From: Dehalococcoidia bacterium
GTDB lineage: Bacteria > Chloroflexota > Dehalococcoidia > DSTF01 > JACRBR01
Length of the DNA: 64,000 bases
Reading direction: 5' to 3'
NCBI GenBank assembly: GCA_035650575.1
Contig: DASRHM010000114.1
Location: forward strand, 2,265 to 66,264
The position numbers and the translations under genes were made by a program. A model generated the notes under the pieces. That model was not told the DNA's origin and did not search any database. It was given only the letters and a program-made list of their open reading frames with translations. Below, one piece after another: positions 27,419 to 56,388 of the stretch (positions are counted from its first letter, which is position 1; each line of letters opens with the position of its first letter).

Positions 27419-28204
27419 CTATGCGTTGCGGATGCTCATCCCGCCGTCGACGACGAGGTACGCGCCGGTGATGAAGCTCGCCGCCGGCAAGACGAGGCTG
27501 AGTGTCGCGTGCGCGACCTCCTCCGGCTCGCCGTAGCGCTTCAGGGCGACGCGCCGCTTCGCGTAGATGGTCTTGTGCTCCTCCGGGATCGGCGCCGTCA
27601 TCGCCGTTCGGATCGGGCCGGGGCAGACGGCGTTGACGTTGATCCCGCGCGGGCCCAGCTCGACCGCCATCGAGCGCGTGAGGCCGATGACGCCGTGCTT
27701 CGCGACGGTGTACGGGCTGCCGCCGCCGGTCGCGCCGAGCGCCTCCGTCGACGCGATGTTCACGACGCGCCCTTCGCCGTTGCGCGCGAGGTCGGCGGCG
27801 CACGCGCGGATCAGGCGCGCCTGCGCGGTGAGGTTCACGGCGAGCGTCAGCTCCCACGCCTTCTCCCACGCGTCATGGTCGATCGGCGCGGGGGCGGAGA
27901 GGCCGGCGTTGTTCACGAGGATGTCGACCGGCCCGACCTCGGCGCGGATGCGGTCGACCAGCGCCGGGATGGCGGCGCCGTCCGCGAGGTCCGCGGCGTA
28001 GGCGCGGGCACTGCCGCCCGCGGCGTTCACCTCGCCTGCGGCGGCCGTGACGCCCTCCGCGTTGCGGTCGATGAGCGCGAGGCGGGCGCCGGCATCGGCG
28101 AAGACGTAGGCGGTGGCGCGCCCCATGCCGCTGGCGGCGCCGGTGATGATGGCGACGCGGCCCTCGATCGACCGGCTGAGCTTGCTGAGCTTGGTGTTCG
28201 GCAT
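27419..28204 (-). CDS. SDR-family oxidoreductase (3-oxoacyl-ACP-reductase-like)
   Basis: GRVAIITGAASGMGRATA (TGxxxGxG), NNAG, S...YxxxK (PYTVAKHGV). Confidence 0.85.
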   Translation of the reverse strand: MPNTKLSKLSRSIEGRVAIITGAASGMGRATAYVFADAGARLALIDRNAEGVTAAAGEVNAAGGSARAYAADLADGAAIPALVDRIRAEVGPVDILVNNAGLSAPAPIDHDAWEKAWELTLAVNLTAQARLIRACAADLARNGEGRVVNIASTEALGATGGGSPYTVAKHGVIGLTRSMAVELGPRGINVNAVCPGPIRTAMTAPIPEEHKTIYAKRRVALKRYGEPEEVAHATLSLVLPAASFITGAYLVVDGGMSIRNA

Positions 28205-28230
28205 GCGGGAGGACTATAGAGCGCCGGCCC

Positions 28231-28369
28231 GCGGGCGGCCAGCGCCGGCGCTGCGATGGCGCCGGCCCTCCGGAGCGGGTGCGCGGGGGCGCCGTGCGTC
28301 GTACAGGCCTGGATGGAGATGGCTGTGGAGCGGGAGACGAGACTCGAACTCGCGACACTCTGCTTGGGA
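28231..28369. repeat. Left 139-bp direct repeat of the island (attL-like); 28325..28369 is a 45-nt copy of the 3' part (anticodon loop to CCA) of tRNA-Gly on the minus strand
   Basis: Ungapped alignment with 44831..44969 (offset exactly 16600 nt), 129/139 identical. The 5' half of the tRNA is absent here, so this is a displaced tRNA 3' fragment plus its 94-nt downstream flank. Confidence 0.85.
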
Positions 28370-28594
28370 ACAAGCTAGGGCTTCTGCAAGCTGCTCCAGA
28401 TTCGAAGTTGGCCCCGAAACCGATGCAAGCTGCACCTAATTGGGCGCACATCTCGCGGCCGGGTTCGGCACGCTGCCGAACGTCATGCTATCGCAGAAAA
28501 CGCTCAGCGGATCGCATCGTTTCTAGCGCAATCACCGCCTGACTTAGGCGCCGCTAACACGCGCGGCCCGACACATCAATGTGCATCGCAGCAG

Positions 28595-29503
28595 TCAGGG
28601 CCGAACCGCGACGGGGGTCGCCTCGACGGCGAGCGCGTTAAACCCGTCCCGTGACCAGAACACGCGCCCGGCACCGAGCCGCTGCTCCAGCGCGTCGTAA
28701 AGACGCTCCGCTGCGCTGATGTCCTGCCAGTCTCCCCAGCCGAGTTCTGCAAAACGCGCTGGGAGCGGGCGGTGACGCGTGCGCTTGCCGTTGGAGCCAT
28801 CGCCGAAGAACGTATCGACGATCACGCGATCTGCGGCGGATTCCAGTGCATCGGCGAAACGCTCGAGCGAGTGAGGAAGCGTCGGACTGACGGCGGCCTG
28901 CACATGGATCCCCAGCGCACGAGCCTGGCGCATGGTCGTGAGCCGACGTTCGACGCTTGGGCATGTAGGTGTGAGCGCTCGCCGCACGGCATCATCATCT
29001 GTCTCAACGGTCATCGAGAGCCAGGCGAATGGCATCTCGGCGAGAAGGTCGAAGTCCTCCTCGACGAAGGGAGAGCGGGTCTGAACCACGAGCACACCGA
29101 TCGGGTGCTCGTGGAACACCTCAAGGATAGAGCGCGTGATCCGGAGCTTCGCCTCCGCTGGCTGATAGGGATCCGTCGCGGAGCTCATGAAGACGCGCAC
29201 GGACTTTGGGTCGCTGAGGACTCCAAGGTCTCGGCGAAGCGCCTCGGCGGCGTTCGCCTTGGCGCGCAGCCACTTCCCCCAGGGCTTGCCAGCGTAGAGG
29301 CCGATCGGCGACTCCGCGACGTAGCAGTAGACGCCGCAGCCGCCGTCGCCGAACGCGCATCCCATGTACGGGTTCAGGGTATGCGTGAACGCGTACAGGA
29401 ACCCGCTTGCGGGCGTGAGCACGCGGCTCGTGCGAACCAGTTCGGGCTGGAGCAACGCTGGACCTCGACAATGACCCATAGCACGGATGTTCTTCTTGGT
29501 CAA
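28595..29503 (-). CDS. Putative radical-SAM-related Fe-S protein of the SplB/COG1533 (DNA-photolyase-like) family
   Basis: Cys cluster MGCAFGDGGCGVYCYV near the N-terminus, followed by a TIM-barrel-like series (VRVFMSSATDPYQP, LSMTVETDD, VQAAVSPTLP) resembling SPL-family proteins. Cys spacing C-x6-C-x3-C is atypical. Confidence 0.45.
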   Translation of the reverse strand: MTKKNIRAMGHCRGPALLQPELVRTSRVLTPASGFLYAFTHTLNPYMGCAFGDGGCGVYCYVAESPIGLYAGKPWGKWLRAKANAAEALRRDLGVLSDPKSVRVFMSSATDPYQPAEAKLRITRSILEVFHEHPIGVLVVQTRSPFVEEDFDLLAEMPFAWLSMTVETDDDAVRRALTPTCPSVERRLTTMRQARALGIHVQAAVSPTLPHSLERFADALESAADRVIVDTFFGDGSNGKRTRHRPLPARFAELGWGDWQDISAAERLYDALEQRLGAGRVFWSRDGFNALAVEATPVAVRP

Positions 29504-30139
29504 GGGCCTAGCAGCGGCCGTACGTCAGGCCCAACGCTCACCGCCTAACCTCGACGCGCCGGCTCCCCTATTCGAGAGCACGTATGGTAATTGCCGGCCA
29601 GGCGCATCGCGGCGGTCATGTCCTCTACGTGGATGTCGGTCAGCTCGAATTCACGCATGTGCTCACGGAGTTCTCGTGGACGGAGGTCCGCGTCTTCGAT
29701 GATCAGGTGGTCGCAGCGCTTCAACATCTCCGAGAGGACGCTGGCTCGGGCCGAACTGATTAGCGCAGATGGGTCGAATCGTCGCACGGGCAAGTAGAGT
29801 TCGCTCCCAATCCGCGCGCCATCAGCGACCAGAGTCAGCGCGGCGAAGTAGCTGGAAAGCGCTGGCTGTGCCCAACGTGCCCGTCGGCCACCTGGTCCAC
29901 GTATTTGGTGGGGGACTCGCGTTCCTCCGCACGGAGCGGATCGAACAGCAGATCCGGCTCAGCGATACGAATGAGTCGCGCCTCGCATCGCTTCTCTTGT
30001 TGCTGCTGTACCAACGAAACGCCTTGCACAGGACCTGGTAGAGTTCCTTCAGAACGATGGATCCCGCGACGTGACTGAAGAGGCGGCCGGGTTATCTCTC
30101 GGCTGAGTCTGTCGCCACAGTGGCAGGGACTACGCATGA

Positions 30140-33100
30140 TCACGCTTTTCCAAAGACGTCCTGGAGTTCCCTCAGCTGGTCGTGCCAAGTCGGCGGCGTC
30201 GTGAATCGCAAAGCTACGACCCGGTAACCCGCATCCTCCAACGCCGTGCGAGCAGCTGCATCCTTTCGCTGCTGGTGTACTGTGTGGTGCGCCGCGCCAT
30301 CGATGAACACGCAGATTCCAGGGGCGCCACTGTCTCGCTCGTAATAGAAGTCGGGCTGGGCGGCGATGCGCGAATCGGGCCTATTCTGTGCATTGTCAGG
30401 AAGGCGATGGCCGTACTCATACAGGTGGTCAAGGAAAGAAGCTTCTGCACGTGATCGCGGATCCAGCAATCCTCTGAGCCGCTGGTATTGGTCGTCGCGC
30501 GACCGACCCTTCGATTCCACCACGAGACTCGATGCCAATCTCAGCAGATGATCACGAATAAGCCGACGGTCGATCAGCCGTTGTTCGATCTGGTTGGAGT
30601 AACTTAGGAGGCACTCGTAGCAGCCCACGACGCACTGAAAGTCCCTCGGGGCCAGTTCTTGGCCAGTCGCAGCATCATAGTGACAGACCGACAGCGCGCG
30701 TCTGGCGACTGCAGCGAGAGCCCCGGCCTCCTCAACGATGCGCTCGAACACACCGGTTCCACCTTCCGCAGCTTCCCAGAACAGGATGCCGCGACGCTCA
30801 CCGCTGCCGATGAGCTCCGCCTCGATTTCCTGCTGTTCCACCTGGTATTCGAGCTCGATGCCGTGCCTGAGAGCGTAGAGGAGCGTCGTCAAGAACGGGT
30901 CGTCTCGATTGGGGGCGGGGTAATACAAGAGCAGGTTGCGGTGGTCGAACACGAACGGCTTGAGCCCCGCGATCGGTGCCGGCAGATCAGGCTCGTCGTC
31001 ATCAGCGACGACGGCGTCGGCCTCCATCTTCCGCCACCGTCCGGTCGATGGCTCAATTTGATACCCCTTGCGGTCACTTTGACGCCGGCCGTGGTTGATT
31101 CGCCAGAGCGTGGCAGCCTGGCCGTAAATCAGATGAGCAAGCTCATCCCCCTCGGAGCTGCGTATCGATGCAGGGCGGCGCCGCGCAGGCGGCACGAAGC
31201 AGAAATGGGTGGACGTGGCGTACCCATTGCGGAGCCGCTCCTCCTCGTCTGAAGAGATCCGGTCAGTAATGCGCGCCCTCATTGTCGGCTGCTCCAGAAG
31301 CTTCTCTTCCAGCCGCGACGCGCTGGCATCGAGCCGGCCACCGCAGCCATCGCACAACTCGTTGTCGACGCGCTCGTCGGTGTGGATGTAACCACAGTTG
31401 ATGCAGATACGGCCTCTGCGCAGCCTTCCTTCCAGGCCCGTGACAGGCACGATCGCCGCATCAACACGATGCTTCCGCCCTTCGTGATAGACGATGTTCA
31501 TCGGGGCGAACTCGGTCAGGCCAATAAACCGCGGACGGTCGATCGATTTCGCCGTGTCTCGAACACTGACCATCACGCGCACGGGAAGCCGAGGGAAGTT
31601 GTAGCCGGGAAGGAATCCCTCAGCGCCCAAATAGCGGTAAGGGTAGAAATCGGATTCCTGCAAACGCGACTCGCTCTTGCTCGCGCTCGCGTTGAGCAAC
31701 AGGTCGAGTTCGCGCCTTGCCTCACGCTCCCGTTGCTCAGCGCGTTCCTTCTCGCGCTGGTCTGGCCTCGGCGCATCGATGATCGCCCGGGCTCCGTCGC
31801 GCATGTCTTCCGCCGACCGGTACAGTTCGCGCCAGCGTCCGAGAGCGGTCTCCAGCGCCGATGGCGCCTCGCGAATTGTGCGTGCGAGCCAGTCCTCGCT
31901 GAACCACCATGCTTGCCGGATCTCGGGGGCTCGCTCAATCACGGCCCTCGCAGCGGCAAGAGCTTTGTCATACCACTGATCTGTACGTGCAATGTCGTCC
32001 TTTTTTTGGAGCGGATATTGCCGTGTGCGATCGGTCAGGTCGAGGACGTCGGCCATACTCTGGCCGAAGGAGATGCTCGTCTCCGAAAGCCACGTCGCCT
32101 GGAGGTGCGCCTGCACTAACTCCGGATTCTGGAGGTCCATGCGCGCCGGAGCGACGGCGCCAGCAATCATCCGCTCACGTTGGCGGAAGAAGTACTGATC
32201 GTGCACGTTGCCTTGCGCGGCGAACGTCAGAATCAAGGCGGGCCGGCCGCCACGTCCAGCTCGTCCGCTGCGCTGTGCGTAGTTGGCAGGTGTGGGCGGC
32301 ACGTTGCGGAGATGAACGCTGTTGAGGTCTCTGATGTCGACACCGAGCTCCATGGTCGGTGAACAGAACAGGGCCGGTAGTTCTCCCTTGCGGAAGCGCT
32401 CCTCACGGTCGATGCGGTCATCCACATCGACCTGACCCGTGTGTTCCCGTCCAAGCATCCCGCGCAGGTCACGGGCGCCCACGCGATACAACTCGCGAAA
32501 GTACGAGTTCGGTTCGCGCGCGCCCACCTCACGGCGAAGGTACAGCGCTCGCGAGCGGACTCTGTCAGGGGGTGGCGCCACGCCCGTGCCGGGCAGCCAG
32601 CGAATCGCGCTCGCAAGCACCCGAACGCCGCGTTCCGTCCCCCGTCGCGACACAACGCTGAGAATGTGGCCCCGAAGGTTCTCCACGATGCCCCGTATGA
32701 GCTGCTCGCCCTCCTGCGTAGACAGGTCGTGGTCCAGATCCCACGTGCGCTTGGAACGCAGATATCGCCCGATCGCCGAGCGCGACGTCATCCGGGTGTA
32801 CCGCCGTCGCCACTCAGTCTCATCAGGTTCAACACCGGGTAACAGCACGAGCGACTGGCGGATCAGCTGGTCTCGCGGGTCGAGCGCCCAGGGATCGCGC
32901 AGCCCCTGACTCTCCGTCGCCCGCATCGTGAGACGGCGAGTCGCCTGCTCCGTGAGGAGGTCAGCCTCGATCGCGAGCTGCGTCCGGAGGTGATCGAGCA
33001 CGGCTCCAAGGACCTCTTCTCGCCGACCCGGTGGGGCGCCCCCGATTCCGGGCAGCCGTTGCCAACGGGCGTCGTCGGCGGCGAGCTCGCGCAGGCCGTC

Positions 33101-35296
33101 ATAGTCGATGCGCAGCAGCCCGGCCTGTTCGAGATTCGGCTGTGCAACCCGCCAGCCGCGACTGAGGTCCTCGATCGCACGATATTGCAGCAGCTCGATC
33201 ATCACGTCGCGCAGGCGCTGATATCCCGGGCTTCCGAGGGGAAGGTCTTCCTTTAGGAAGTCCGCGGGCCGGAAGTCCAGCTCCTCGAATATGGCCGGTC
33301 CGAGCTCGCCGAAATCGAGACTTCCGCGCTTCTGTACCGCGCTTGCGATCGCCGATCGCAACTGCGCGACGGTCACGAAGTCATTGAGATGTCCGGCCTG
33401 GAGCGACGCGTCCTGGCGGTTGTCGGTAAAGCTGAGGATCTTGCACGCTTCAGGGTCCACGTCACCAGCACGACGCATGTTTGCGACGGCGGCATGCACT
33501 ACGACAGAGGTGGCGGTCGAGCGGCCGATCTGGCTCAGCGACGAGAGCTTGTAGAAGTCCCTGTTGCGGAAGTCATATGCCGCCCGGCAGCGGAGACAGA
33601 GCATCAGCGGCCGCGGCTGGAACCAGCCGTGCACGCCTTCGCCGGCGTGGCCGTCGCGGAGCGTACCGTCCGCCGACGCTGTGAACGCGCGTGGCACGTG
33701 GGGCAGGTAGTTCTCCTTGATGCGCGGACCGGATTTGCGCTCCACGAACCAGAAGTCGGGCAGCTCATCCTCGTCGTTGCCCCAGAGCCGGTCGTCGGGC
33801 GTGCCGGGCTCGGTGCTGAAGAAGCCGCCCTCGCCCGGAATGTCTTCGTCAGACGCACCCACGATCGGCGATCGCGGCACGAGCCGCGCGCCGTCGCCCT
33901 CTCCTATTAGCGAACACAGGTAGTACTCCTGGCCACATTCGCGGCAGAACACCAGCGGGAACAGTACGCGCTCCTCGTCGAGCTTGTACTGCGCCTCCAT
34001 CGTGAGCGGACGGCGATCGGGCGGCTCCAGCGTCGTGTAGACGCTGCTGCCGGACGACAGGAACTGGTGCAGCCGGAAGGGAAAGACTCGCTGATCCTCA
34101 GCGATGCGCGCCGCATTCCCCACCTCGAGCACGGCGCGTAGCCGCTGCCGGCACGTGTCCTCGCCGACGCCGGATTGCGACGCCAGCCGTCGCACCGCCT
34201 CGTCGAAGGTCACCGGCGGTTGCCGGACCAGCCTCCCCTCCTCGACCGTGAGGCCGAATGTCTCCTCCGCCCAGGCGGCCAACGGGTGATGCGTCACCTC
34301 GTCGACGCCGGCGCCGACGGGAGCGTCCGCAGGCACCATCGGCGGCGGCTGCATCTGGACCGCCGCCCGCAGCTCCTGGGGCGTCGCCGGTGCCGGGACC
34401 TGCGTCACGCGGCGGAGGGTCTCGTCGATGACATTGGCGGGCGGCACCTCGACGCCGAACAACCTCGACGCGACCTCGGCGATCGTGCGATGCCGCTCCT
34501 CGCGCGTGCCCTCGGTCGTGAGCGTCGCGCTGGTGCCGACCATCTGCAGATCGTGGCCGGCGCGCTGCTGGACGCGGCGCAGCAGCATCGCGACGTCAGC
34601 GCCCTGGCGTCCGCGATAGAAGTGCAGCTCGTCCATCACGAGGAATCGCAGGTCGCGTGTCGCCGTCTCAACCAGGGTGCGCTCCCAGGGCCGGACGAGG
34701 AAGTACTCGAGCATCACGTAGTTGGTGAGGAGGATGTGCGGCGGATCCGCGAGGATTCGGTCGCGATCTGCCTCCTTGGTCTGACCTGTGTATTGATCGA
34801 ATCGCACGGAGCAATCGGCGAAATTGAGGTCGCGGTACTCCTGCAGCGCCTTGAGCTGGCTGTTGATGAGCGCGTTCATCGGATAGACGATGATCGCGCG
34901 CACGGAGTGCCGCTCCGGCTGCGCGCGCATGATCTCGTCGAAGATCGGCACGAGGTACGTCAGGCTCTTGCCGGACCCGGTGCCCGTGGTGACGACGTAC
35001 GGCTCGCCGCGCTTCGCGATCTCCAGCGCCTGCTTCTGGTGCCGGTGCAGCCGGATGCCCTCGCCGAAGAAGCGCGCCGTCTCGGGCACCAGCGTGCCGT
35101 CCTTCGCCAGCTCGCCGAGCGTCTCGTCCTGCTCGTAGGCCGGGTTGAGCTGCAGTACCGCCTCCGGCCAGAGCACGCCCTTGGCCAGCTCCTCGCGCAC
35201 GAAGTCGTTGATGCGGTCGTCGAGCACGCGCACGAAGCTCTCGACGTACCGCCGGTACTCGTCGACTACGCCATCACGAAGCTTGAAGACGTCCAT
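30140..35296 (-). CDS. Giant (1718 aa) defense helicase: DEAD/DEAH-box helicase core + DUF1998-like Cys4 zinc module + C-terminal DUF559/Vsr-like PD-(D/E)xK nuclease domain (fused DrmA/DrmB-like protein)
   Basis: Helicase motif I VVTTGTGSGKSLTY and motif II VMDELHFY; multiple CxxC pairs (CRECGQEYYLC, ICINCGYIH...CDGCGG, VGCYECLLSYSNQ) typical of DUF1998/MrfA C-termini; extreme C-terminus ICVFIDGAAHHTVHQQRKDAAARTALEDAGYRVVALRF matches the DUF559 consensus. ATG at 35296 follows an AGGGACGGG RBS, 15 nt after the DUF4411 stop. Confidence 0.85.
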   Translation of the reverse strand: MDVFKLRDGVVDEYRRYVESFVRVLDDRINDFVREELAKGVLWPEAVLQLNPAYEQDETLGELAKDGTLVPETARFFGEGIRLHRHQKQALEIAKRGEPYVVTTGTGSGKSLTYLVPIFDEIMRAQPERHSVRAIIVYPMNALINSQLKALQEYRDLNFADCSVRFDQYTGQTKEADRDRILADPPHILLTNYVMLEYFLVRPWERTLVETATRDLRFLVMDELHFYRGRQGADVAMLLRRVQQRAGHDLQMVGTSATLTTEGTREERHRTIAEVASRLFGVEVPPANVIDETLRRVTQVPAPATPQELRAAVQMQPPPMVPADAPVGAGVDEVTHHPLAAWAEETFGLTVEEGRLVRQPPVTFDEAVRRLASQSGVGEDTCRQRLRAVLEVGNAARIAEDQRVFPFRLHQFLSSGSSVYTTLEPPDRRPLTMEAQYKLDEERVLFPLVFCRECGQEYYLCSLIGEGDGARLVPRSPIVGASDEDIPGEGGFFSTEPGTPDDRLWGNDEDELPDFWFVERKSGPRIKENYLPHVPRAFTASADGTLRDGHAGEGVHGWFQPRPLMLCLRCRAAYDFRNRDFYKLSSLSQIGRSTATSVVVHAAVANMRRAGDVDPEACKILSFTDNRQDASLQAGHLNDFVTVAQLRSAIASAVQKRGSLDFGELGPAIFEELDFRPADFLKEDLPLGSPGYQRLRDVMIELLQYRAIEDLSRGWRVAQPNLEQAGLLRIDYDGLRELAADDARWQRLPGIGGAPPGRREEVLGAVLDHLRTQLAIEADLLTEQATRRLTMRATESQGLRDPWALDPRDQLIRQSLVLLPGVEPDETEWRRRYTRMTSRSAIGRYLRSKRTWDLDHDLSTQEGEQLIRGIVENLRGHILSVVSRRGTERGVRVLASAIRWLPGTGVAPPPDRVRSRALYLRREVGAREPNSYFRELYRVGARDLRGMLGREHTGQVDVDDRIDREERFRKGELPALFCSPTMELGVDIRDLNSVHLRNVPPTPANYAQRSGRAGRGGRPALILTFAAQGNVHDQYFFRQRERMIAGAVAPARMDLQNPELVQAHLQATWLSETSISFGQSMADVLDLTDRTRQYPLQKKDDIARTDQWYDKALAAARAVIERAPEIRQAWWFSEDWLARTIREAPSALETALGRWRELYRSAEDMRDGARAIIDAPRPDQREKERAEQREREARRELDLLLNASASKSESRLQESDFYPYRYLGAEGFLPGYNFPRLPVRVMVSVRDTAKSIDRPRFIGLTEFAPMNIVYHEGRKHRVDAAIVPVTGLEGRLRRGRICINCGYIHTDERVDNELCDGCGGRLDASASRLEEKLLEQPTMRARITDRISSDEEERLRNGYATSTHFCFVPPARRRPASIRSSEGDELAHLIYGQAATLWRINHGRRQSDRKGYQIEPSTGRWRKMEADAVVADDDEPDLPAPIAGLKPFVFDHRNLLLYYPAPNRDDPFLTTLLYALRHGIELEYQVEQQEIEAELIGSGERRGILFWEAAEGGTGVFERIVEEAGALAAVARRALSVCHYDAATGQELAPRDFQCVVGCYECLLSYSNQIEQRLIDRRLIRDHLLRLASSLVVESKGRSRDDQYQRLRGLLDPRSRAEASFLDHLYEYGHRLPDNAQNRPDSRIAAQPDFYYERDSGAPGICVFIDGAAHHTVHQQRKDAAARTALEDAGYRVVALRFTTPPTWHDQLRELQDVFGKA

Positions 35297-35313
35297 GCCC
35301 GTCCCTCGTCGCC

Positions 35314-35784
35314 CTAGATAGACCAGCCCTGCTCCCGGATCACGTCGACCAGTCGAACGCAACGGACGCCGAGAGCCGTACAAACGTCCGGGATGTTCGG
35401 CTTGGCGGTGTTCCCAGTAGGCATTTCGTCGGTCACAACCGCGCAAGCGCGCTGCACCGCAAGCGCGATCACGAATGGATCCGCTGCGGATCGATTCGTG
35501 CGGGTGTCTACGAGTCGCGGGTAGTCCCTCATGATATCTCGAACGATCGGTTGAACCTCATCGTCAATAGGGACGAATAGAGCGGGACGCTCACGCGCCC
35601 ACTGATAAAGCTCGTCGTCTTTTCTCTCGATCTCGACGCGAACCTCATCGGAGGCGATCAACACGGCGTTTTGGACCAGCCCATCTATCCTCCCCCAGAC
35701 TGTTGGGAATATGTCTGGAGGATAATGCTTCCGCCAGGCATTGATCAGCATGCTAGAGTCACCGCTGTACGCAGGATTGGGCAT
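35314..35784 (-). CDS. DUF4411-family protein (PIN-like putative nuclease/effector)
   Basis: 156 aa; its start ATG overlaps the ImmA-gene stop (ATGA). DUF4411 assignment made from memory of the family; it pairs with HTH-ImmA genes in defense islands. Confidence 0.55.
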   Translation of the reverse strand: MPNPAYSGDSSMLINAWRKHYPPDIFPTVWGRIDGLVQNAVLIASDEVRVEIERKDDELYQWARERPALFVPIDDEVQPIVRDIMRDYPRLVDTRTNRSAADPFVIALAVQRACAVVTDEMPTGNTAKPNIPDVCTALGVRCVRLVDVIREQGWSI

Positions 35785-36962
35785 CAGGACGCAGCCCTCA
35801 TGAGATCGCTCTCGATGCGCGACAAGTGCTTGAGCCGGACCCCCAAGAGCCCGGCGACGTCACTCGCCGTGATGCGATCCTGGGAGTAGCTGGCGAGCAC
35901 CAGACGCACGAACGCCGGGCCAGCGCTCGCGAGTGCCATCCGGTGTGGCGGAGCGAAACCGCCTTCGCGGGACGGCTGACGCAAGTATTCCTCGTGGAAC
36001 TCGCGTAGCTTAGCCTCGAAGTATGCGTTCGTAATGACGTCTAGCGTCCGGAGACGACGGAGAATCACTTCGCGACTGACCCCGAAGGTCTCGGCTAGCT
36101 GGCGCAGATCGGTGTCGCTCCAGCTGGAGACGGTGGCCCCCGACGATATCAACGGAGTGCCGAGCAGTCGATCGCGCGGCACGAGAGCAGCCGCAGCGAC
36201 GCGGTTGCACAACTGCTCTATCCTCTGGTCATCCGTCCCGCCGGTAGGCAGCTCTTCAGGCGAGACGTTGCAGAGTCCGAATTGCCGAAGTGCGAGGTGC
36301 GTCAGCTCATGGAAGAGGCTGAAGATGCGACCGGCAATTGCATCCTTGATGTTCAGAACTATGGCGGGAAGGCGTTCGGAGTAGATGCAGAAAGCCCGCA
36401 TTTCCTTGAGTTCAACGTCAGTGGCTTGAAAGACTAGAACTCCGGCGGTCTCGAACTTTGCGCGCAACGCGTTTAACGTTTCGTAGCCAGCAGCCCAGCG
36501 CTCCTGTTCTGCGCCGGTTAGACCGACGAACTCCCGGAGCCGGACACCAAGGTTCTCGGAATCCTCATGGTCATCCGCCGTCAGGACGAAAGCCGGCGCC
36601 TCCCCCTCCATCGCCTCGAGCAGATCCTGCGCGATCTCACGTCGGTCTTGAGCGAGCCGCACTTGGAAGCGCAGCTCTGGCGATTCGACCGGCGTGTCTC
36701 CGGGTAGTCTTCTGAAGTCACGAAGTGCCTGAAACTCGGTCGGCGGCTCGGGCAAGTAGAAGACGGCAAGTGGCCGCTTGTACGCTGTGCCGAGCTTCCG
36801 AAGTTGCGCGATGGTAGGACGGCCTTCGCCGCGCTCCCAGCCCTCTAGGCGGTCGGGCTTAACCGGGATCTTCTTGGCGGCCGTCGCTACGTCAAGGCCC
36901 GCGCTTCCTCTGGCCCAGGCGAGCACCGCAGGTTCAACTTGAGCTTCAACGCGAACGGTCAT
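35784..36962 (-). CDS. XRE-type HTH fused to ImmA/IrrE-family zinc metallopeptidase
   Basis: N-terminal HTH (LDVATAAKKIPVKPDRLEGWERGEGRPTIAQLRKLGTAYKRP) and HEXXH motif SLFHELTHLAL in the ImmA/IrrE (COG2856) context. ATG at 36962 preferred over the TTG at 36995. Confidence 0.8.
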   Translation of the reverse strand: MTVRVEAQVEPAVLAWARGSAGLDVATAAKKIPVKPDRLEGWERGEGRPTIAQLRKLGTAYKRPLAVFYLPEPPTEFQALRDFRRLPGDTPVESPELRFQVRLAQDRREIAQDLLEAMEGEAPAFVLTADDHEDSENLGVRLREFVGLTGAEQERWAAGYETLNALRAKFETAGVLVFQATDVELKEMRAFCIYSERLPAIVLNIKDAIAGRIFSLFHELTHLALRQFGLCNVSPEELPTGGTDDQRIEQLCNRVAAAALVPRDRLLGTPLISSGATVSSWSDTDLRQLAETFGVSREVILRRLRTLDVITNAYFEAKLREFHEEYLRQPSREGGFAPPHRMALASAGPAFVRLVLASYSQDRITASDVAGLLGVRLKHLSRIESDLMRAAS

Positions 36963-37031
36963 AGTGCCCAAAAGCCTACACGGCACCCCCAGCAACGGCG
37001 ATGGACGCGCCGCAACTGCGAGAGCGCCTCC

Positions 37032-37817
37032 TCACGCCGTCTCGCTCGGCAGCGGTTTCCCCGCGGCCAGGAGATCATACGACTCCAGCACCAACCGCAT
37101 CGTCCGGTACTCCCCCCAGCGCGCGATCTCCTTGTTCTTCAGCCCCCGGAACGATTCACTCGGCGGCTGGGCGTCGAGGATCCATTCCAGGTCGGGGCCG
37201 TCGAGCTGGTAGAGGTGGGCGATGATGGCGTCGATCTCGCAGCGGAGCTGGAGCCGGCGGCCCTCGTCCCAGGCGTACGGCGGCCGTCGTAGCCGAGGTC
37301 GCGGGCGAACGGCGCCAGGTCGTCGGCCGTGTACGTCAGCTCCAGCACGCGTGGTACCAGCAGTTCCGCGTACGTGCAGCCGACCGGTGACCGTTCGAGG
37401 AAGTACTGCGGCGGCAACACGGGCAACTGCTTCACGATGAAGAAGTTCATGTTGACGCCGCCGACCGAGAAGCGGGCCGCCCAGTCGAGCACGATGGAGT
37501 CAAGGTTTGCGAGAAGCAACGACGCCGCGGCGGCGACTGGATCAATGCGAAGCAGCGTCGTTGAGTCGCTAAAGCCGGATACGCCCGAGCCGGCGACTAT
37601 CGTCGTGCGCTCGTCAGTCGCGCGTGTGATCTTCCTGAATGCCTGCAGCCATCCATGGCCAAGCTGTCCGACGAGCGGCGCCTTGTTGCTCACGGCTGTC
37701 GCCTCGATGACTGCGACGATTGCGGTGCGCTCATCGGTCGCGCGCGCGATATCGCGGAATGCGAGAAGCCAACCACAATACCACTGTTCCCGAGCGCCAC
37801 TGCGCCGGTCATTGCCA
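37032..37817 (-). pseudogene. Out-of-frame C-terminal remnants of the PglX/DrmMI-like methyltransferase (two frames)
   Basis: The frame open from the SSR to about 37139 encodes ...NMNFFIVKQLPVLPP...LELTYTADDLAPFARDLGYDG. After a 1-nt deletion in a C run (about 37283) the next frame encodes PPYAWDEGRRLQLRCEIDAIIAHLYQLDGPDLEWILD...YGEYRTMRLVLESYDLLAAGKPLPSETA*, the conserved PglX-type C-terminus. Confidence 0.7.
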
Positions 37818-40800
37818 TCACGAACGTCCTCTCGTCTGTGGACCGCGCGATCGAGCGAAACGCCACTTGCCAGCCGCGAGTTGAGCGAATACTCTCTCTC
37901 TCTCTCTCTCTCTCTGCGTCAGCGCACTAGCAGGGGCAAGCCGCGCGGCCACCTCCTCCGCCGGCACCCAGTAGCGCGGGATGACGAGGCGGCGCGGGTC
38001 GCGCTTCTCGGCGGGCGTCAGCTCGCGGGCGTTGCCCTTCTTGCGGTCGTCCTCGCCGACGCCGTCGAACGTGGCGAAGCGGTGGTCGTACTGGTGGAAG
38101 AGCTTCGCCTCGTAGAGCGGCAGGTACGTGCGGCCGTCGCCGTGGCGGAAGACGTTGCCCTCCAGCGCGAAGCCTTCGGCGCGCAGCTCCGCCGCCGTGC
38201 GGAAGAGATGCGAGTCGTTGGACATGTCGAAGAGGCGCTGGAAGCTCACGCCCCACGAGTTCTCCTCGCCCTCCCCATCGCGCGCCTCCCGCACGAAGAC
38301 GCCGGCGCGGCGGTAGAGCTTCGCGGCGATCTCGGCGTCGCGGCGGCTGCGGAACGTGGGGGCCGTGCGCGTGTTCGGGTTGAACAGCGCGAAGTCGGCG
38401 GGCGCCAGCGTGAAGCGGCGCTCCGGGTCGCGCACGTGGGCGACGTCTGTGCAGAAGAACGCGAACTCGGCGGGAGGCGCGTCGCCGTCGGGCGCGCCGC
38501 GCAGGGTCAGGAGGCAGAACTTGATGCGGCTATCGATGCCGGGGAAGATTCCCTCTCGGTTCTCGAAGTCGAACAGGCTGGCCAGTCGCCCGGAGCCGGC
38601 GAAGCTCGCGAACAGCTCCTTCGTCGTGTCGTCGGTCGCGACGCCGCTCGGGCAGATCACGCCGCTCCGGCCGTTGATATGCAGCAACGCGTGGTCTGCT
38701 TCCACGAAGACGGCGTAGAGGTTCACATCGCCGCGCCCGCCCAGGGGGAATCTGCCGGACTGGCGCAGGAACGCGCTCGCTTTCTCCGCAGTGCGCTGCG
38801 CTTCGTTGAACTCCGCGAAGAGCTGCTGGTCGGCTGCCTCCGTCGAGCGTGCGAGCGCCTCGATCATGCGCTTGCGCGAGGCGGCATTCGGCGCCTGTGC
38901 GATGTCCCGCGAGCGGCTCGCGAAGAACTCCTGCTGCGAGAGCTTCACGCGCTCCCACGGCGGGTTCCCCAGCACGACGTCAAACCCGCTCTTCAGCTGC
39001 ATGATGTCGGGGAATTCGAGCGGCCAGTGGAAGAAGCGCTGTTTCTCGCTGAAGGCGACCGCTTCGCCCACGAGCTGGGCGTCGGCGGCGTTCGGCTGCA
39101 GCAGGTAGCGCCGCACCGTGTCGGTCGTCGGGACGCGCGCGGCGCCGCGCAGCGGCGCGAAGAACGCATAGGTCCAGAGGTCGCAGGCCGTCTTCCACTG
39201 CCACCACGCCGTCCCGCGGCCGCGGATGCGCTCGTACAGCTGCTCCTTGCGGTGGACGTCGTCCGGCGTGCGCTCGTCGGTCGCGGCCAGCCTGCTGAAG
39301 GCGTCGGCGAGCTGGCCCTGGCCGTCGATGCCGCTCACCTCGACCAAAGCCGTCTGCCCGGTGCGCTCCTCGCGGTTGCGCTTGCGGATGGCCGTCGCGG
39401 CAGCCTTGTCGTCGCCGGTGACCGGCTTGTACGCGTCGTCCGGGATCCCCTCTTCGAGCACCTTCAGGTCGAACACGCCGACCAGGCTGTCGCCGCATTT
39501 GATGTGGTGGTCGAGGAAGTTCAGCGGTAGGCCGGCGTTGTGGCCCTCGATCCAGAGCGCGACCTTGCAGAGGTCGACGGCCAGCGGGTTCTTGTCGACA
39601 GCGTAGATGCAACTGCGGATGACGTCGCGCAGCGCCTCGCGGTACTTCTCCGGCGGCGGCTCTTCCTCTTCGACGCGGGTCTTCGCCAGTTCGGTCGCGA
39701 TCTTGCGCGCGGCCGCGAGGAGGAAGTGACCCGAACCCGCCGCCGGGTCGCACACCCGCAGCGCCAGCAGCGCCGCCTCGCGCTCGGCCTTCGTCTTCGC
39801 GCCGCGCAGCCGCTCCTCCATCACCGGCACGAGCGCGCTCTCGATGAGCTCGCGCACCAGCTCGGGCGGCGTGTAGTAGCTGCCGGTCTGCTTGCGCTCG
39901 CTGCCGGTGACCAGCGCGAACTGGCGGCGCTGCAGGTCCACCTTCGGGTGGAAGTCGAGCAGGCTTTCGTAGACGGAGCCGAACTCCTCGACATCGAGTG
40001 CCGCGTAGTTCACGCGCCGGCGCGGGCCTCGGCGGCGGCGCCGGCCCGACCCCTGCTCGTCGACGAACGTGGACAGGTGCCGGATAGCGCGCAGGAGGTC
40101 GGCGTTCGTGCAGACGGCCGGCTCCAGATCGCGGCAGGCGGGCTCGCCGAACAGCTCGCCGTCGAGCGCGCGCATGTCGAGCTTCCGCGCCACGTCGTCG
40201 TCGCGGAACATGCGGAACGTCTGCCGCAGCGAGATCCACAGGTCAGCGTGCGTATCGCTCGCGAAGTGCCGCTCGGCGCGGCCGCGCAGCCGTCCGATGC
40301 TGTAGTAGTCGGTGTAGATTTGATGCCGCTCCGTCGCAGCGACGTCCGGAGGGAAGATCAGCCGGCGCTCCTCGGCGACCATGAGGAACAGGAAGCGATA
40401 CACGAGACGCAGGAGCTGCCGGTAGTACGCCGTCGCATCGAGCGCGCCCGAGGACAGGCGCTCGCGCAGCGCCTCGCTCTCGGAATGGGCGAGGAAGGCG
40501 GTGCCGAGGACCTGGAGCGCCTGCTCGACGCCGTCGCGCAGCTTCTCGCGGACGCGGCCGCCCTGCTCGATGCCCTGCTGGTAGTAGCGTTCGAGCAGGC
40601 AGTCGCGCGGGTCGTCGCCGCGGGGGAACCGTGATGCGTGCAGGAGCCGGAAGAGCAGCGCGAACTCGCTGAAGAGGTTCGCGCCGATCATCGTCTCCAG
40701 GTCGAACTCGACGTACGTCGGCTTCGTGAAGATGTTGCTATCGCGCAGGAGCCGGAGCCGGCGCCCGTTCGTGACGATGCCCCAGAGCGCGTCGGAGCGG

Positions 40801-41248
40801 TTCAGGAACTCCTGCACGACGGCGTGCGACGTGCGGCGCGCGCTGCCGGCGCGGCGGTCCAACTCTTCGTCGAAGGCAACGACGTGCACGGGCGCCGCGT
40901 GCTCGCTCTCGCCCATGCGGTGCGAGATGAAGTAGCTCTGTCCGCCGGCCTCCGCCGAGGCGCGCTGCAAGACGAGCTGATAGCCGAGGCACTCGGACAG
41001 CAGGGGCACCACCCACGCCTCTCGCGTGATCGTCGTGGCGCTCTCGCGCGTGCGTTCAAGTCGGCGCTGGAAGGCGTCCCAGTAGAGCCGCGCGTCCGAG
41101 AAGGCCGACTGGATCTCGTCAGCCGGCCGGCGGTTGCCGTCGAGGCCGAAATCCGCCGCGCGCTGCCCCTCGGCGTCGCCGGCGGCGATGCTGTCGAGGA
41201 GGTCCGGCGGGAACAGCCCGCCCTCGAGCGTCACTGACGTCCACGCCA

Positions 41249-41249
<1 letters not shown>
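37818..41249 (-). CDS. PglX/DrmMI-like N6-adenine DNA methyltransferase (type IIG/IIL-like), 1143-aa reading frame truncated after an in-frame (AG)12 tract
   Basis: Motif I VCDPAAGSGHFLLAAARK, motif IV VLGNPPWERV, and N-terminal PglX-like region. Start ATG 41249..41247 overlaps the SNF2 stop (TGATG). Reading frame ends 24 codons after the SSR-encoded QRERERER. Confidence 0.8.
37892..37915. repeat. (CT)12/(AG)12 dinucleotide microsatellite inside the methyltransferase coding frame
   Basis: Perfect 24-nt dinucleotide run, encoding RERERER on the minus strand; a candidate slipped-strand phase-variation site. Confidence 0.9.
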
Positions 41250-44115
<2,866 letters not shown>

Positions 44116-44830
44116 GTCTCGTCGCGGCCCAGACTCGATCTCGGTCAGGCCGAGTCATCCGCCTACCGGGCGCCAGGCTGAACTCTGGTGCGTGGGCGCC
44201 GACCGAGTCGCTAAAGGGAAGAGGCTGCGTCGATGACCTTACGCATGTCTGAGCCAAACCGTCGGCAGGCCCGGCGACGAGGTGTCCGTCTATGGATATG
44301 ACTTTCCTCACACGTTGTGGTCGTCATCTATAGCCTAGGGCAGCTGACCGGACGCGACGGGAATATCGCCCCAGCGACGACCGATGCTGCAGGCAACTTC
44401 GTGATCGCTGGCGGCGTGCCGCGCGGGTTGTGCCCCGCCGCGTATATCATTCAGGCCGTGGCCATCGATTCCGGCTGGATGGCATCGGCTTCCTTCACAG
44501 TCACTCCATAACCACGTGGTCACGTCGCGCGGCATGGCTCCGTCCATCTCACGACCGCGCGTACCATTCCGGCTCAACCTCATAGCGCGGCCCGCCGGCC
44601 GATACCGGCAGCCGCTCTAACCTCCGGCGCGAGACGACCGAGTCGTCGCGGAAGGCGATCGTGCGGTCAGGCTGCGCGGCGTCGGGCAGCTCGGCCGACG
44701 GCGACGGGTCCACGGTACGCGCGGGTGTACGGGAATGAGCTAATTGCAGATGCCGGTCGAGAAGTTGTCGAGGTCGCAGACCCCGGTGGGCGGGCGGCGG
44801 CATCGGCGAAGACATAGGCATGGCGCGCGG

Positions 44831-44969
44831 CGGGCGGCCAGCATCGGCGCTGCGATGGCGCCGGCCCTCCGGAGCGCGTGCGCGGCGGCGCCGGGCGTGG
44901 TACAGGCGTGGGTGGAGGTGGCTGTGGAGCGGGAGACGAGACTCGAACTCGCGACCCTCTGCTTGGGAA
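44831..44969. repeat. Right 139-bp direct repeat of the island (attR-like), covering tRNA-Gly nt 32-76 plus the 94 nt downstream of the tRNA
   Basis: Pairs ungapped with 28231..28369 (10 mismatches). Confidence 0.85.
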
Positions 44970-45000
44970 GCAGATGCTCTACCGGCTGAGCTACTCCCGC
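44925..45000 (-). tRNA. tRNA-Gly (anticodon CCC)
   Basis: Reverse strand GCGGGAGTAGCTCAGCCGGTAGAGCATCTGCTTCCCAAGCAGAGGGTCGCGAGTTCGAGTCTCGTCTCCCGCTCCA; cloverleaf with 7-bp acceptor stem, TTCGAGT T-loop, encoded CCA, and anticodon loop CTTCCCAAG. Confidence 0.9.
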
Positions 45001-50942: not shown

Positions 50943-51019
50943 GGGCGGTTAGCTCAGCTGGTTAGAGCGCCACGTTGACATCGTGGAGGTCACTGGTTCG
51001 AGTCCAGTATCGCCCACCA
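50943..51019 (+). tRNA. tRNA-Val (anticodon GAC)
   Basis: GGGCGGTTAGCTCAGCTGGTTAGAGCGCCACGTTGACATCGTGGAGGTCACTGGTTCGAGTCCAGTATCGCCCACCA; anticodon loop TTGACAT; encoded CCA. Confidence 0.9.
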
Positions 51020-56313: not shown

Positions 56314-56388
56314 TGGTGGGCCCGGCAGGATTCGAACCTGCGCGCCACCGGTTATGAGCCGGGTGCTCTGCCGCTGAGCTACGGGCCC
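56314..56388 (-). tRNA. tRNA-Met (anticodon CAT)
   Basis: Reverse strand GGGCCCGTAGCTCAGCGGCAGAGCACCCGGCTCATAACCGGTGGCGCGCAGGTTCGAATCCTGCCGGGCCCACCA; anticodon loop CTCATAA; encoded CCA. Confidence 0.85.

Follow-up and report, generated by a model that had tools for sequence, protein, structure and literature searches.

A probable ARMADA type I helicase-nuclease, ArmC, on a tRNA-Gly-associated island of a Dehalococcoidia genome

Introduction

A single reading frame at positions 30140-35296 of the window, i.e., the whole 64,000-nt stretch of Dehalococcoidia DNA analyzed here, raises the question of what kind of protein it encodes and to which defense system the protein belongs. An initial annotation proposed that one polypeptide joins an SF2 helicase, a DUF1998 zinc module and a Vsr-type nuclease, and this combination is borne out by Pfam, hhalign and residue conservation. 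The best assignment of the frame, with a probability of roughly 0.88, is as armC, in an anti-phage locus of ARMADA type I that has the gene order armA-armB-(RosmerTA-like pair)-armC. ARMADA, the DISARM-related Antiviral Defense Array, is a recently named and widespread anti-phage system related to DISARM and Druantia; the preprint by Bell et al. 2025 (PMC12458937) describes it as a YprA-like helicase with a BrxHII-like helicase and a PglX-like methylase.

Results and Discussion

The armC reading frame

The armC gene (30140..35296, minus strand) is an uninterrupted ORF that starts at the ATG at 35296 and has a YprA-family product of 1718 aa, identical to NCBI protein HZP58428.1. Translation of the plus strand of the same interval is stop-rich; the initial annotation gave no strand. 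The longest form of the ORF spans 30140-35446. Three observations support the start at 35296: a GAGG lies 6-9 nt upstream of the ATG, the preceding gene ends at 35314, and the N-termini of homologues, with the consensus MxLDVFxLRD, agree with this start.

It was also considered whether the frame is an assembly chimera of two genes or a two-gene fusion artefact, a possibility that the initial annotation itself had named. The contig is metagenome-assembled and two genes near armC carry frameshifts, which would fit an artefact. Against this, full-length homologues number more than 100, with 37-65% identity and from many phyla; 120 database homologues of 1690-1720 aa span 100% of the query, residues 1 to ~1716 are matched in a single frame in 80 loci from many phyla, and at least 67 plasmid records cover at least 80% of it. 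Because full-length homologues are so abundant, armC is not regarded as a chimera, and the chance of an artefact is negligible.

The helicase core and its insertion

All of the ArmC motifs quoted in the initial annotation are present, among them TTGTGSGKS at residues 103-111 and MDELH at 221-225. The RecA1/DEAD half of the core (aa 85-261; 34514..35044, minus strand; Pfam DEAD, E 1.2e-25) displays GTGSGKS (motif I), DELH (II) and SAT (III), and the RecA2/Helicase_C half (aa 951-1017; 32246..32446, minus strand; Pfam E 1.5e-12) has motif VI, QRSGRAGR. Motifs I-III fall at 103-258 and motif VI at 1008-1015, and all four are invariant among 120 homologues. The helicase had been placed in the N-terminal ~700 aa, but the core extends to motif VI, its two halves being separated by an insertion of ~650 aa (aa ~285-945; 32462..34444, minus strand).

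The insertion consists of a helical region, a beta-rich zinc module and a winged-helix/MarR-like region. ARMADA type I is recognized by an insertion after RecA1 in which a beta-barrel zinc module with two or more CxxC motifs is combined with a MarR-like domain, and ArmC agrees with this pattern. A structural model of the mid-region, of moderate confidence (pLDDT 74, pTM 0.50), gave weak wHTH/MarR matches and no match to BrxA or DruE. A BrxA-like helical domain directly after RecA1 is described as a synapomorphy of the ARMADA/Druantia clade (PMC12458937).

Cysteine modules

Two cysteine-rich segments of the insertion, CRECGQEYYLC (451-461) and LMLCLRCRAAYDF (564-576), contribute the CxxC pairs C451/C454 and C567/C570 (33587..33946, minus strand). 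All four cysteines are kept in 120 of 120 homologues (C461 is not conserved), and beta strands flank both pairs in the predicted model, so that conservation and model together point to a putative single Cys4 zinc site. Of the two segments suggested as extra zinc ribbons, only these four cysteines are invariant, which leaves at most one further Cys4 set rather than two ribbons.

The motifs CINCGYIH (1298-1305) and CDGCGG (1315-1320) supply a separate Cys4 zinc ribbon, C1298/C1301/C1315/C1318, in the OB-fold region (31343..31405, minus strand; 120/120 homologues). This is the sole conserved Cys4 cluster between aa 1230 and 1470, and a single zinc insert in the OB region is reported to be the type I pattern (PMC12458937). 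The initial annotation had taken these cysteines for part of DUF1998; they are invariant but form a ribbon outside the Pfam MZB match. The MZB/DUF1998 module itself lies at aa 1474-1563 (30608..30877, minus strand; PF09369, 38.7 bits, with the cut-off at 24.2). Its Cys4 set, C1538/C1555/C1559/C1562, is inside the Pfam match and conserved in 109-120 of the 120 homologues; this assignment is based on the match coordinates and conservation, not on a residue-level alignment with MrfA. Thus the claim of a DUF1998 Cys4 module stands with its first CxxC pair misassigned. The residue numbers given earlier were ~55-80 too high: the ribbon motifs are at 1298-1320 rather than ~1380-1410, and VGCYECLLSYSNQ is at 1557-1569 rather than ~1610-1625. 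A single-sequence PDB search with aa 1243-1590 did not reach MrfA or DrmB, and its zinc-ribbon likeness to the adenylate kinase lid was non-significant. With Pfam scores above cut-offs, ArmC has in one chain the YprA-family SF2 core and the DUF1998/MZB Cys4 by which ARMADA helicases are recognized.

The C-terminal nuclease domain

The C-terminal region (aa ~1600-1718; 30143..30499, minus strand) contains the motifs PDFYYERDSG (1648-1657), ICVFIDGAAHH (1661-1671) and GYRVVALRF (1690-1698). In an hhalign alignment with Vsr, E1618, D1649, D1666 and D1679 pair with E25, D51, H64 and D97, positions that are the EDxHD residues of Vsr-like nucleases. The ArmC set consists of E1618, D1649, D1666, H1670 and D1679, and all five are present. 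Alignment of the C-terminus with the Vsr catalytic residues had been put forward as a check, and it returned an intact set. The positions are invariant in the 120 close homologues, with the exception of E1618 (113/120).

In a scan of full-length ArmC, Pfam DUF559 (PF04480) is absent; the isolated C-terminus reaches 16.6 bits (E 0.007), under the gathering cut-off of 20.6. The sole match of the C-terminal profile among PDB sequences was 3r3p (E 0.048), and a Foldseek search against the PDB gave no significant match. A PLD domain was not found in ArmC by Pfam. The chain ends 20 aa past the Vsr core and carries a single Vsr domain. The earlier proposal of a Vsr/DUF559-like nuclease is upheld by hhalign and the intact EDxHD set, although the Pfam DUF559 score is below threshold, and the evidence supports a domain of Vsr/DUF559 fold, a predicted nuclease, with intact catalytic residues.

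The domain shares the Vsr-like alpha/beta fold and EDxHD residues with Vsr, I-Bth0305I and DUF559 proteins, but it differs from Vsr in forming the tail of a 1700-aa translocase. In the segment aligned by hhalign, the Vsr zinc ligands and intercalating Trp wedge have no counterpart (HGCFWHHHHC of Vsr is replaced by DGAAHH). The Trp wedge serves T:G mismatch recognition in Vsr; since neither it nor the zinc ligands are matched, T:G-mismatch specificity is not expected of ArmC.

A rival reading is that the domain has lost its catalytic activity and has a purely DNA-binding or structural role, as in DruE of Druantia types I and II, any cleavage being left to another protein. Inactivated Vsr domains are reported for related DruE proteins, and the discoverers mark the type I Vsr domain "active?" (PMC12458937). 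About 10 of 79 wider type-I-like C-termini have lost the H and/or D, and a pure translocase model requires no further nuclease. However, the EDxHD residues are kept in the other 69 of these 79, and the near-complete conservation among close homologues is the outcome expected from purifying selection on catalysis; moreover, the locus has no other conserved nuclease gene. An inactive domain is thus unlikely. A predicted active C-terminal Vsr nuclease is also described for ArmC of both types, and a nuclease-dead ArmC is not among the ARMADA II mutants in the sections of the preprint available (PMC12458937).

Neighboring genes

Upstream of armC on the same strand are armA and armB. The armA gene (41249..44076, minus strand) encodes a BrxHII/DrmD-like SNF2 helicase and has one frameshift at ~43600-43618: the NCBIfam DrmD matches are divided between two ORFs, three-frame translation bears out the interruption, and the alignment to a homologue is split between frames -1 and -3. 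The armB gene (37818..41249, minus strand), whose start ATG overlaps the armA stop, encodes a PglX/DrmMI-like N6-adenine methyltransferase of 1143 aa with an NPPW motif (PADLOC DrmMI, E 8e-79; Pfam Eco57I/N6_Mtase). A small ORF at 37056..37693 (minus strand) is homologous by tblastn to the C-terminal region of ArmB or a post-ArmB gene, its homologues lying right after ArmB in ~55 loci; it is frameshifted near 37280, as homologues align in two frames, 37693-37283 and 37277-37056. With armA and this ArmB-tail ORF both frameshifted, the local locus may be decaying and non-functional.

Inserted between armB and armC is a RosmerTA-like pair. One gene (35784..36995, minus strand) encodes an HTH_3 and Peptidase_M78 (ImmA/IrrE) protein, a RmrA-like antitoxin or regulator by Pfam, PADLOC RmrA (E 1.8e-19) and the RosmerTA definition; the other (35314..35784, minus strand) encodes a DUF4411 PIN-like protein of 156 aa, the putative toxin (Pfam DUF4411 E 5.7e-39, with a weak PIN match). 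On the downstream side of armC the island contains a radical SAM gene; the small ORFs there gave no matches. The radical SAM gene has no counterpart in related loci and for this reason is not counted in the system. PADLOC and Pfam scans of the neighbors detected solely DrmD/DpdE, DrmMI, RmrA, DUF4411 and radical SAM families, the profiles matched by armA and armB being DrmD/DpdE and DrmMI/PglX respectively. The island contains neither a UvrD/GajB-like ArmD nor a PLD gene.

Among 83 loci of ArmC relatives, 40 have the order ArmC-ArmA-ArmB and 12 the order ArmA-ArmB-ArmC, most others being cut by contig ends. ArmA and ArmB are thus syntenic with ArmC in at least 52 of the 83, with 15 further partial cases cut by contig ends. 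The initial annotation had described a self-contained effector; armC is instead conserved beside ArmA and ArmB in most related loci, and in the tested ARMADA, of type II, all genes are reported to be required for defense.

Assignment to ARMADA type I

Bell et al. 2025 list HZP58428.1 (DASRHM010000114.1, VFC53_12885) as "ARMADA Type I helicase" in their Table S1 (PMC12458937), and the authors' tree is reported to put it inside ARMADA I. The clade placement adopted here is taken from that listing. ArmC fits the type I pattern: ArmD is missing from the island, the Vsr domain is single, and the OB region carries just one zinc insert. As described, the type I representative ArmC (WP_108720193.1) has the same YprA core, zinc/wHTH insertion, OB zinc insert, DUF1998 and single Vsr domain, and the same partners, ArmA (SNF2) and ArmB (PglX-like). 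In contrast to it, the present locus has a RosmerTA-like pair ahead of armC and frameshifts in armA and in the ArmB-tail ORF. The "reversed" order armA-armB-armC is reported for archaea and cyanobacteria (PMC12458937), whereas the present locus is from Chloroflexota.

ArmC of E. coli ARMADA type II (WP_000937974.1) is likewise described as a helicase of YprA type that carries DUF1998 together with an active-type Vsr domain, from an operon in the order armA-armB-armC. Type II adds ArmD (a RelE-GajB-like helicase), an EEP domain and a second Vsr domain behind the active one, and a second OB zinc insert; compared by description, none of these extras is found here. The ARMADA for which an experimental test is described is type II from E. 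coli only. Its defense is reported to be direct and non-abortive, and to depend on the NPPW motif of ArmB as well as on the ATPase motifs of both helicases, ArmA and ArmC.

The novelty implied by the initial annotation is unsupported, because PMC12458937 describes the ArmC architecture with its C-terminal Vsr domain and tabulates this exact protein. The finding is real, but both the family and the protein were catalogued before.

Relation to Druantia, DISARM and MrfA

The earlier designation of the helicase as MrfA/DrmA-type is correct as to a YprA/MrfA-type SF2 protein; the closest profiles, however, are those of DruE. The best PADLOC matches of ArmC are DruE3 (303 bits, E 1e-90) and DruE1 (280 bits, E 1e-83), and DrmA profiles reach 55 bits in the generic Helicase_C region only. 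The nearest solved structures by sequence, 9tu7 (E 2.5e-42) and 9wae (E 1.8e-26), are helicases of ~2000 aa. Both are taken here to be DruE-type proteins.

Such matches would also suit DruE of Druantia, perhaps of a type III-B-like kind with a Vsr domain in place of PLD and a DruH-like partner, and a Vsr nuclease is reported on some type III-like DruE (PMC12458937). DruE is an ATP-driven helicase-nuclease with a MrfA-like 3'-5' core, for which cryo-EM structures date from 2026. The type III protein shares with ArmC this core, DUF1998, OB, Cys-rich zinc motifs and a fused C-terminal nuclease, but its nuclease is PLD rather than Vsr, its partner is the exonuclease DruH, and it has no methyltransferase or SNF2 partner. 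The PADLOC release used is from 2023, and since it predates ARMADA, DruE is simply the nearest profile available. DruH, DruA-D and DruM/F/G-like genes are all absent next to armC in the PADLOC and Pfam scans of all neighbors, which are ArmA/ArmB-like, as the synteny of related loci also attests. With the assignment of HZP58428.1 to ARMADA type I in Table S1, Druantia was rejected as very improbable.

The initial annotation framed the protein as a variant of DISARM class 1, with DrmA fused to DrmB and a Vsr nuclease in the place of the PLD nuclease DrmC. Its tie to DISARM is sound in that the neighbors are DrmD-like and DrmMI-like, and it was right that DISARM keeps the three functions in separate proteins with a PLD nuclease. 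DISARM class 1 likewise combines an SNF2 protein, an adenine methyltransferase, a YprA-type helicase with DUF1998 and a nuclease; the helicase and DUF1998 of ArmC resemble DrmA and DrmB, and ARMADA is explicitly called DISARM-related. However, DrmA, DrmB (OB-CON-DUF1998) and PLD DrmC are described as separate proteins, and ArmC is one ORF (PMC12458937). A separate DrmB and a PLD DrmC are both missing. A large zinc/wHTH insertion that separates the two RecA halves is reported to mark ARMADA/Druantia and not DISARM, and the weak DrmA score points in the same direction. The DrmD and DrmMI scores are far under family cut-offs (armA against DrmD NF038317, 244 bits versus 610), and the DrmMI similarity of armB comes from PADLOC only, so that armA and armB are homologous to DrmD and DrmMI but not equivalogs. 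A DISARM variant, which was likewise rejected, is hardly more probable than Druantia.

Housekeeping MrfA was considered for ArmC and also rejected. MrfA/YprA of B. subtilis (6ZNP; E 2e-25) shares the SF2 core, N-terminal strand and OB-CON-MZB canopy, but is described as a 750-aa protein that has no 650-aa insertion, extra zinc modules or fused nuclease and pairs with the exonuclease MrfB. ARMADA type I remains the preferred assignment.

The island and its tRNA-Gly border

The ARMADA locus is on a low-GC island of ~16.6 kb that adjoins a tRNA-Gly gene in a Dehalococcoidia MAG. The tRNA-Gly(CCC) found by ARAGORN at the island border is at 44925..45000 on the minus strand. Repeat search and alignment revealed flanking direct repeats of 85% identity. 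The right copy (44798..44969) includes the 3' 45 nt of the tRNA-Gly, and the left copy (28199..28370), a tRNA-Gly 3' fragment with downstream spacer, adjoins an SDR gene at 27419-28204.

A possible mechanism and the armB-armC gap

A mechanism may be drawn by analogy with MrfA, DISARM DrmAB and Druantia DruE. ArmB would mark host DNA through adenine methylation, and self/non-self discrimination would be by that methylation. ArmC would load on unmarked invading DNA at single-stranded or forked regions, possibly with ArmA aiding loading or remodeling; its RecA core would then translocate 3'->5' beneath the OB-CON-DUF1998 canopy, and the Vsr-type Mg2+ nuclease would cut the threaded DNA, resulting in direct, non-abortive degradation of phage DNA.

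In other loci the armB-armC gap contains OLD-family ATPases, AAA_14/DUF4143 proteins or a ParE/RelE-UvrD protein resembling ArmD. The gap of reversed-order type I loci could be a functional accessory slot for interchangeable sensor/toxin modules. This is considered unlikely. If true, type I systems would include an exchangeable fourth component that has so far not been described, and such loci would be intermediates in the evolution of type II. In a weaker variant, the intact ArmC beside a frameshifted armA may reflect an ArmA-independent function of ArmC.

The window contains nothing categorically new, but provides independent confirmation of the Vsr fold and intact EDxHD site. It also documents ARMADA in Dehalococcoidia, where the locus lies on a tRNA-Gly island, contains a RosmerTA-like insertion and shows signs of decay. 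For genome scans, ORFs of ~1700 aa annotated as "DEAD/DEAH box helicase" that match DruE and have SNF2 and PglX-like neighbors should be called ARMADA.

Reading frame and homologues of the 1718-aa protein

Translation of both strands of region 30140-35296 gave an open frame on the minus strand only, the plus strand being rich in stop codons. The longest form of this ORF, taken from a mechanical ORF list, extends from 30140 to 35446 (minus strand, 1768 aa) and begins with TTG; the ATG at 35296 yields 1718 aa, the same protein as in the initial annotation. This ATG was accepted as the start because the stop of the preceding gene is at 35314, a GAGG sequence is found 6-9 nt 5′ of the ATG, and homologues share the N-terminus MxLDVFxLRD with the 1718-aa protein. 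Every peptide motif previously listed for the protein is present, but the residue numbers assigned were ~55-80 too high.

A protein database search revealed more than 7700 relatives. The best 120 of these are 1520-1884 aa long (nearly all about 1690-1720) with 52-64% identity, and in almost all, query coverage is 99-100%. When one genome per species was scanned, 80 loci, mostly in MAGs, matched residues 1 to ~1716 in a single frame; they belong to Chloroflexota, Cyanobacteria, Actinomycetota, Planctomycetota, Acidobacteriota, Spirochaetes, Pseudomonadota and other phyla. Near-full-length copies are also carried on at least 67 plasmids, annotated merely as “DEAD/DEAH box helicase”. An assembly chimera of two genes is ruled out by these full-length relatives, single-frame loci and plasmid copies. 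Thus the frame is genuine and encodes a single polypeptide.

Assignment to ARMADA type I

The best PADLOC matches of the protein are to DruE profiles (303 and 280 bits), with only 55 bits for DrmA. Bell et al. 2025 (PMC12458937) describe ARMADA, a DISARM-related anti-phage system, as a YprA-like helicase (ArmC), a BrxHII-like helicase (ArmA) and a PglX-like methyltransferase (ArmB), with a type I and a type II, the latter adding a RelE-GajB-like ArmD. ArmC is reported there to end in a predicted-active Vsr nuclease and to have a BrxA-like domain, with a beta-barrel zinc module and a MarR-like domain inserted in its RecA2 fold; in the OB region, type I has one extra zinc module and type II has two. 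No UvrD/GajB-like gene was found among the island ORFs scanned, and the window ArmC has one terminal Vsr domain and one OB-region zinc cluster. These observations support an assignment to type I. The family is a described one, and the protein is already catalogued within it.

Domains and cysteine sets of ArmC

The domain reading of the initial annotation is essentially right. In a Pfam scan of the full 1718-aa protein three domains exceed the cut-offs: DEAD (aa 85-261), Helicase_C (aa 951-1017) and the MrfA zinc-binding domain (MZB, formerly DUF1998; aa 1474-1563). Helicase motifs I-III are at aa 103-258 and motif VI (QRSGRAGR) is at aa 1008-1015, the RecA halves being separated by an insertion of ~650 aa. 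The SF2 helicase motifs are intact. The core extends beyond the N-terminal ~700 aa in which it had been placed, since the Helicase_C match is at aa 951-1017.

In an alignment of 120 full-length homologues, the invariant cysteines form three quartets: C451/C454 with C567/C570, C1298/C1301/C1315/C1318, and C1538 (109/120)/C1555/C1559/C1562. The last is the only group enclosed by the Pfam MZB match and is therefore the DUF1998 Cys4 set. The DUF1998 signature had been placed in CINCG...CDGCGG together with VGCYEC; the former (C1298 to C1318) lies outside the MZB match and is a separate, self-contained predicted zinc ribbon. C461, in the proposed Cys segment CRECGQEYYLC, is not conserved among the 120 homologues.

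For the C-terminal domain, Pfam did not report DUF559 on the whole protein; with the last 132 aa, DUF559 is sub-threshold (E 0.007, 16.6 bits vs a cut-off of 20.6) and MTES_1575 has an E of 0.03. A profile of 45 homologous C-termini searched against PDB sequences found only I-Bth0305I (3r3p, E 0.048). RAP domains and other PD-(D/E)xK nucleases are also among the matches to the domain, and Foldseek against the PDB gave no significant match. Alignment of the family profile with Vsr by hhalign (Vsr sequence checked against 1cw0) pairs E1618 with E25, D1649 with D51, D1666 with H64 and D1679 with D97. H1670 is the likely counterpart of Vsr H69, although hhalign itself pairs it with H70. Together these residues complete EDxHD, the composite motif defined for Vsr-like nucleases. 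D1649, D1666, G1667, H1670 and D1679 are invariant in the 120 homologues, and E1618 is found in 113. The domain has the Vsr fold with a full catalytic set, in line with the proposed DUF559/Vsr-like endonuclease, and is a predicted nuclease. It is not expected to be a T:G mismatch enzyme: nothing in the hhalign-aligned segment corresponds to the zinc ligands or the Trp wedge of Vsr.

In a wider set, from 83 related loci with ArmC homologues, E-D-H-D is retained in 69 of 79 C-termini and gone in about ten. The His and/or Asp are absent in about 10% of type-I-like ArmC; the losses, in the C-terminal ~130 aa, are at loci L023, L031, L050, L064, L079, L082 and L083, with sequences such as VFCDEGEP, VFVGRQP and VFVESEP at the degenerate motif. 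This pattern suggests that the nuclease has been inactivated repeatedly within the family.

The island and its gene neighbourhood

The GC content is 62-69% at ~28-45 kb; most of the sequence on either side has 70-75%. An island of ~16.6 kb (28371-44924) is flanked by a direct repeat of ~145-172 nt with 85% identity (28199-28370 and 44798-44969). The right copy holds the 3′ 45 nt of tRNA-Gly(CCC) (44925-45000, minus strand) and continues ~100 nt beyond the tRNA end; the left copy, which adjoins an SDR gene, is a fragment of the tRNA. Two other tRNA genes, tRNA-Val(GAC) (50943-51019, plus strand) and tRNA-Met(CAT) (56314-56388, minus strand), are in the window. The island ORFs scanned, all of 80 aa or more, include no integrase. 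In this and in its tRNA border the island resembles those of E. coli ARMADA, which are described as tRNA-integrated and often immobilised.

All island genes described here are on the minus strand. armA (44076-41249) encodes an SNF2 helicase with DrmD/DpdE/BrxHII profile matches, and its stop is overlapped by the ATG of armB (41249-37818), a 1143-aa methyltransferase with an NPPW motif and DrmMI/PglX/type IIG profile matches. There follow a small ORF (37693-37056), an HTH_3 plus Peptidase_M78 protein (36995-35784; PADLOC RmrA, E 1.8e-19), a DUF4411 PIN-like protein (35784-35314; E 5.7e-39) and armC (35296-30140). Just 3′ of armC is a 302-aa radical SAM gene (29503-28595) with weak DUF5131 similarity and no PADLOC match; none of the 83 related loci has an equivalent gene.

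SNF2 and methyltransferase genes are on the strand of the large helicase gene and 3′ of it in 40 of the 83 loci, and 5′ in 12; another 15 have partial neighbourhoods, and only 2 have neither gene despite ample two-sided flank. The upstream arrangement of the window is shared with its closest relatives (Dehalococcoidia and other Chloroflexota) and with cyanobacteria, and gene order is reported as reversed in some ARMADA lineages (PMC12458937). A homologue at L002 (ENA contig_4, 577854-602953; 57% identity) has neither ArmA nor ArmB in intact form. A HicB-like antitoxin gene comes before it, fragments of a type I R-M methylase and PIN and ThsB-TIR genes come after it, and DDE transposases flank it. 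This locus looks like a scrambled defence island.

The HTH-M78 and DUF4411 genes between armB and armC (35314-36995) overlap by one base and resemble RosmerTA, in which an antitoxin with a Zn-peptidase is coupled to a toxin. They form a RosmerTA-like pair of toxin-antitoxin or defence type, and one like it is 5′ of ArmC at L033. At other reversed-order loci the gap carries OLD-family ATPases (AAA_15/AAA_21(+TOPRIM)), AAA_14+DUF4143, XisH, or a ParE/RelE-like protein with a UvrD helicase (L001, 6768-8741; L057, 6715-8469 and 8829-10001; L021, 6047-6562 and 7597-9666). The ParE/RelE-UvrD protein is reminiscent of the type II component ArmD. UvrD-like genes occur near type-I-like ArmC in 6-7 of the 83 loci.

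Frameshifts

One frameshift splits armA (41249-44076) shortly after motif I (...GVLCAPHL, then CAQWEQELREKF...): residues 60-215 of a homologous ArmA align in frame -1 and residues 210-989 in frame -3, with the join at 43600-43618. This could be pseudogenisation or an assembly error. The small ORF 37693-37056 is homologous to sequence after or at the end of ArmB in about 55 loci; the alignment of its homologues with the window switches frame near 37280, at a 1-nt indel. The region is within one 1321-aa ArmB at L001 and is a separate gene of 189-223 aa at L003, L004 and L008. Judging by its name (k141_...), the contig comes from a MEGAHIT assembly of short reads, a type in which indel errors are uncommon. 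Real decay of the locus is plausible.

Proposed mechanism

In the window ArmC the helicase motifs, three conserved Cys4 sets and Vsr catalytic set are intact, and the three-gene neighbourhood is conserved. In the literature on relatives, type II ARMADA is reported to give E. coli direct, non-abortive protection; defence requires the Walker motifs of both helicases, ArmA and ArmC, as well as the NPPW motif of ArmB, and is lost on deletion of any gene. DruE, the sister helicase, is a nuclease that is driven by ATP and acts on substrates containing ssDNA; its 3′-5′ core is MrfA-like. From these features and this literature a model is proposed in which ArmB would methylate host DNA, and ArmC would load onto unmodified invading DNA at ssDNA or forks, translocate beneath its own OB-CON-DUF1998 canopy and cut the threaded strand with its Vsr-type Mg2+ nuclease; ArmA may act as loader or remodeller. 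The earlier term “self-contained effector” is unsupported for the defence system, because the partners are conserved and are required in type II, but it may describe the enzymology of ArmC alone.
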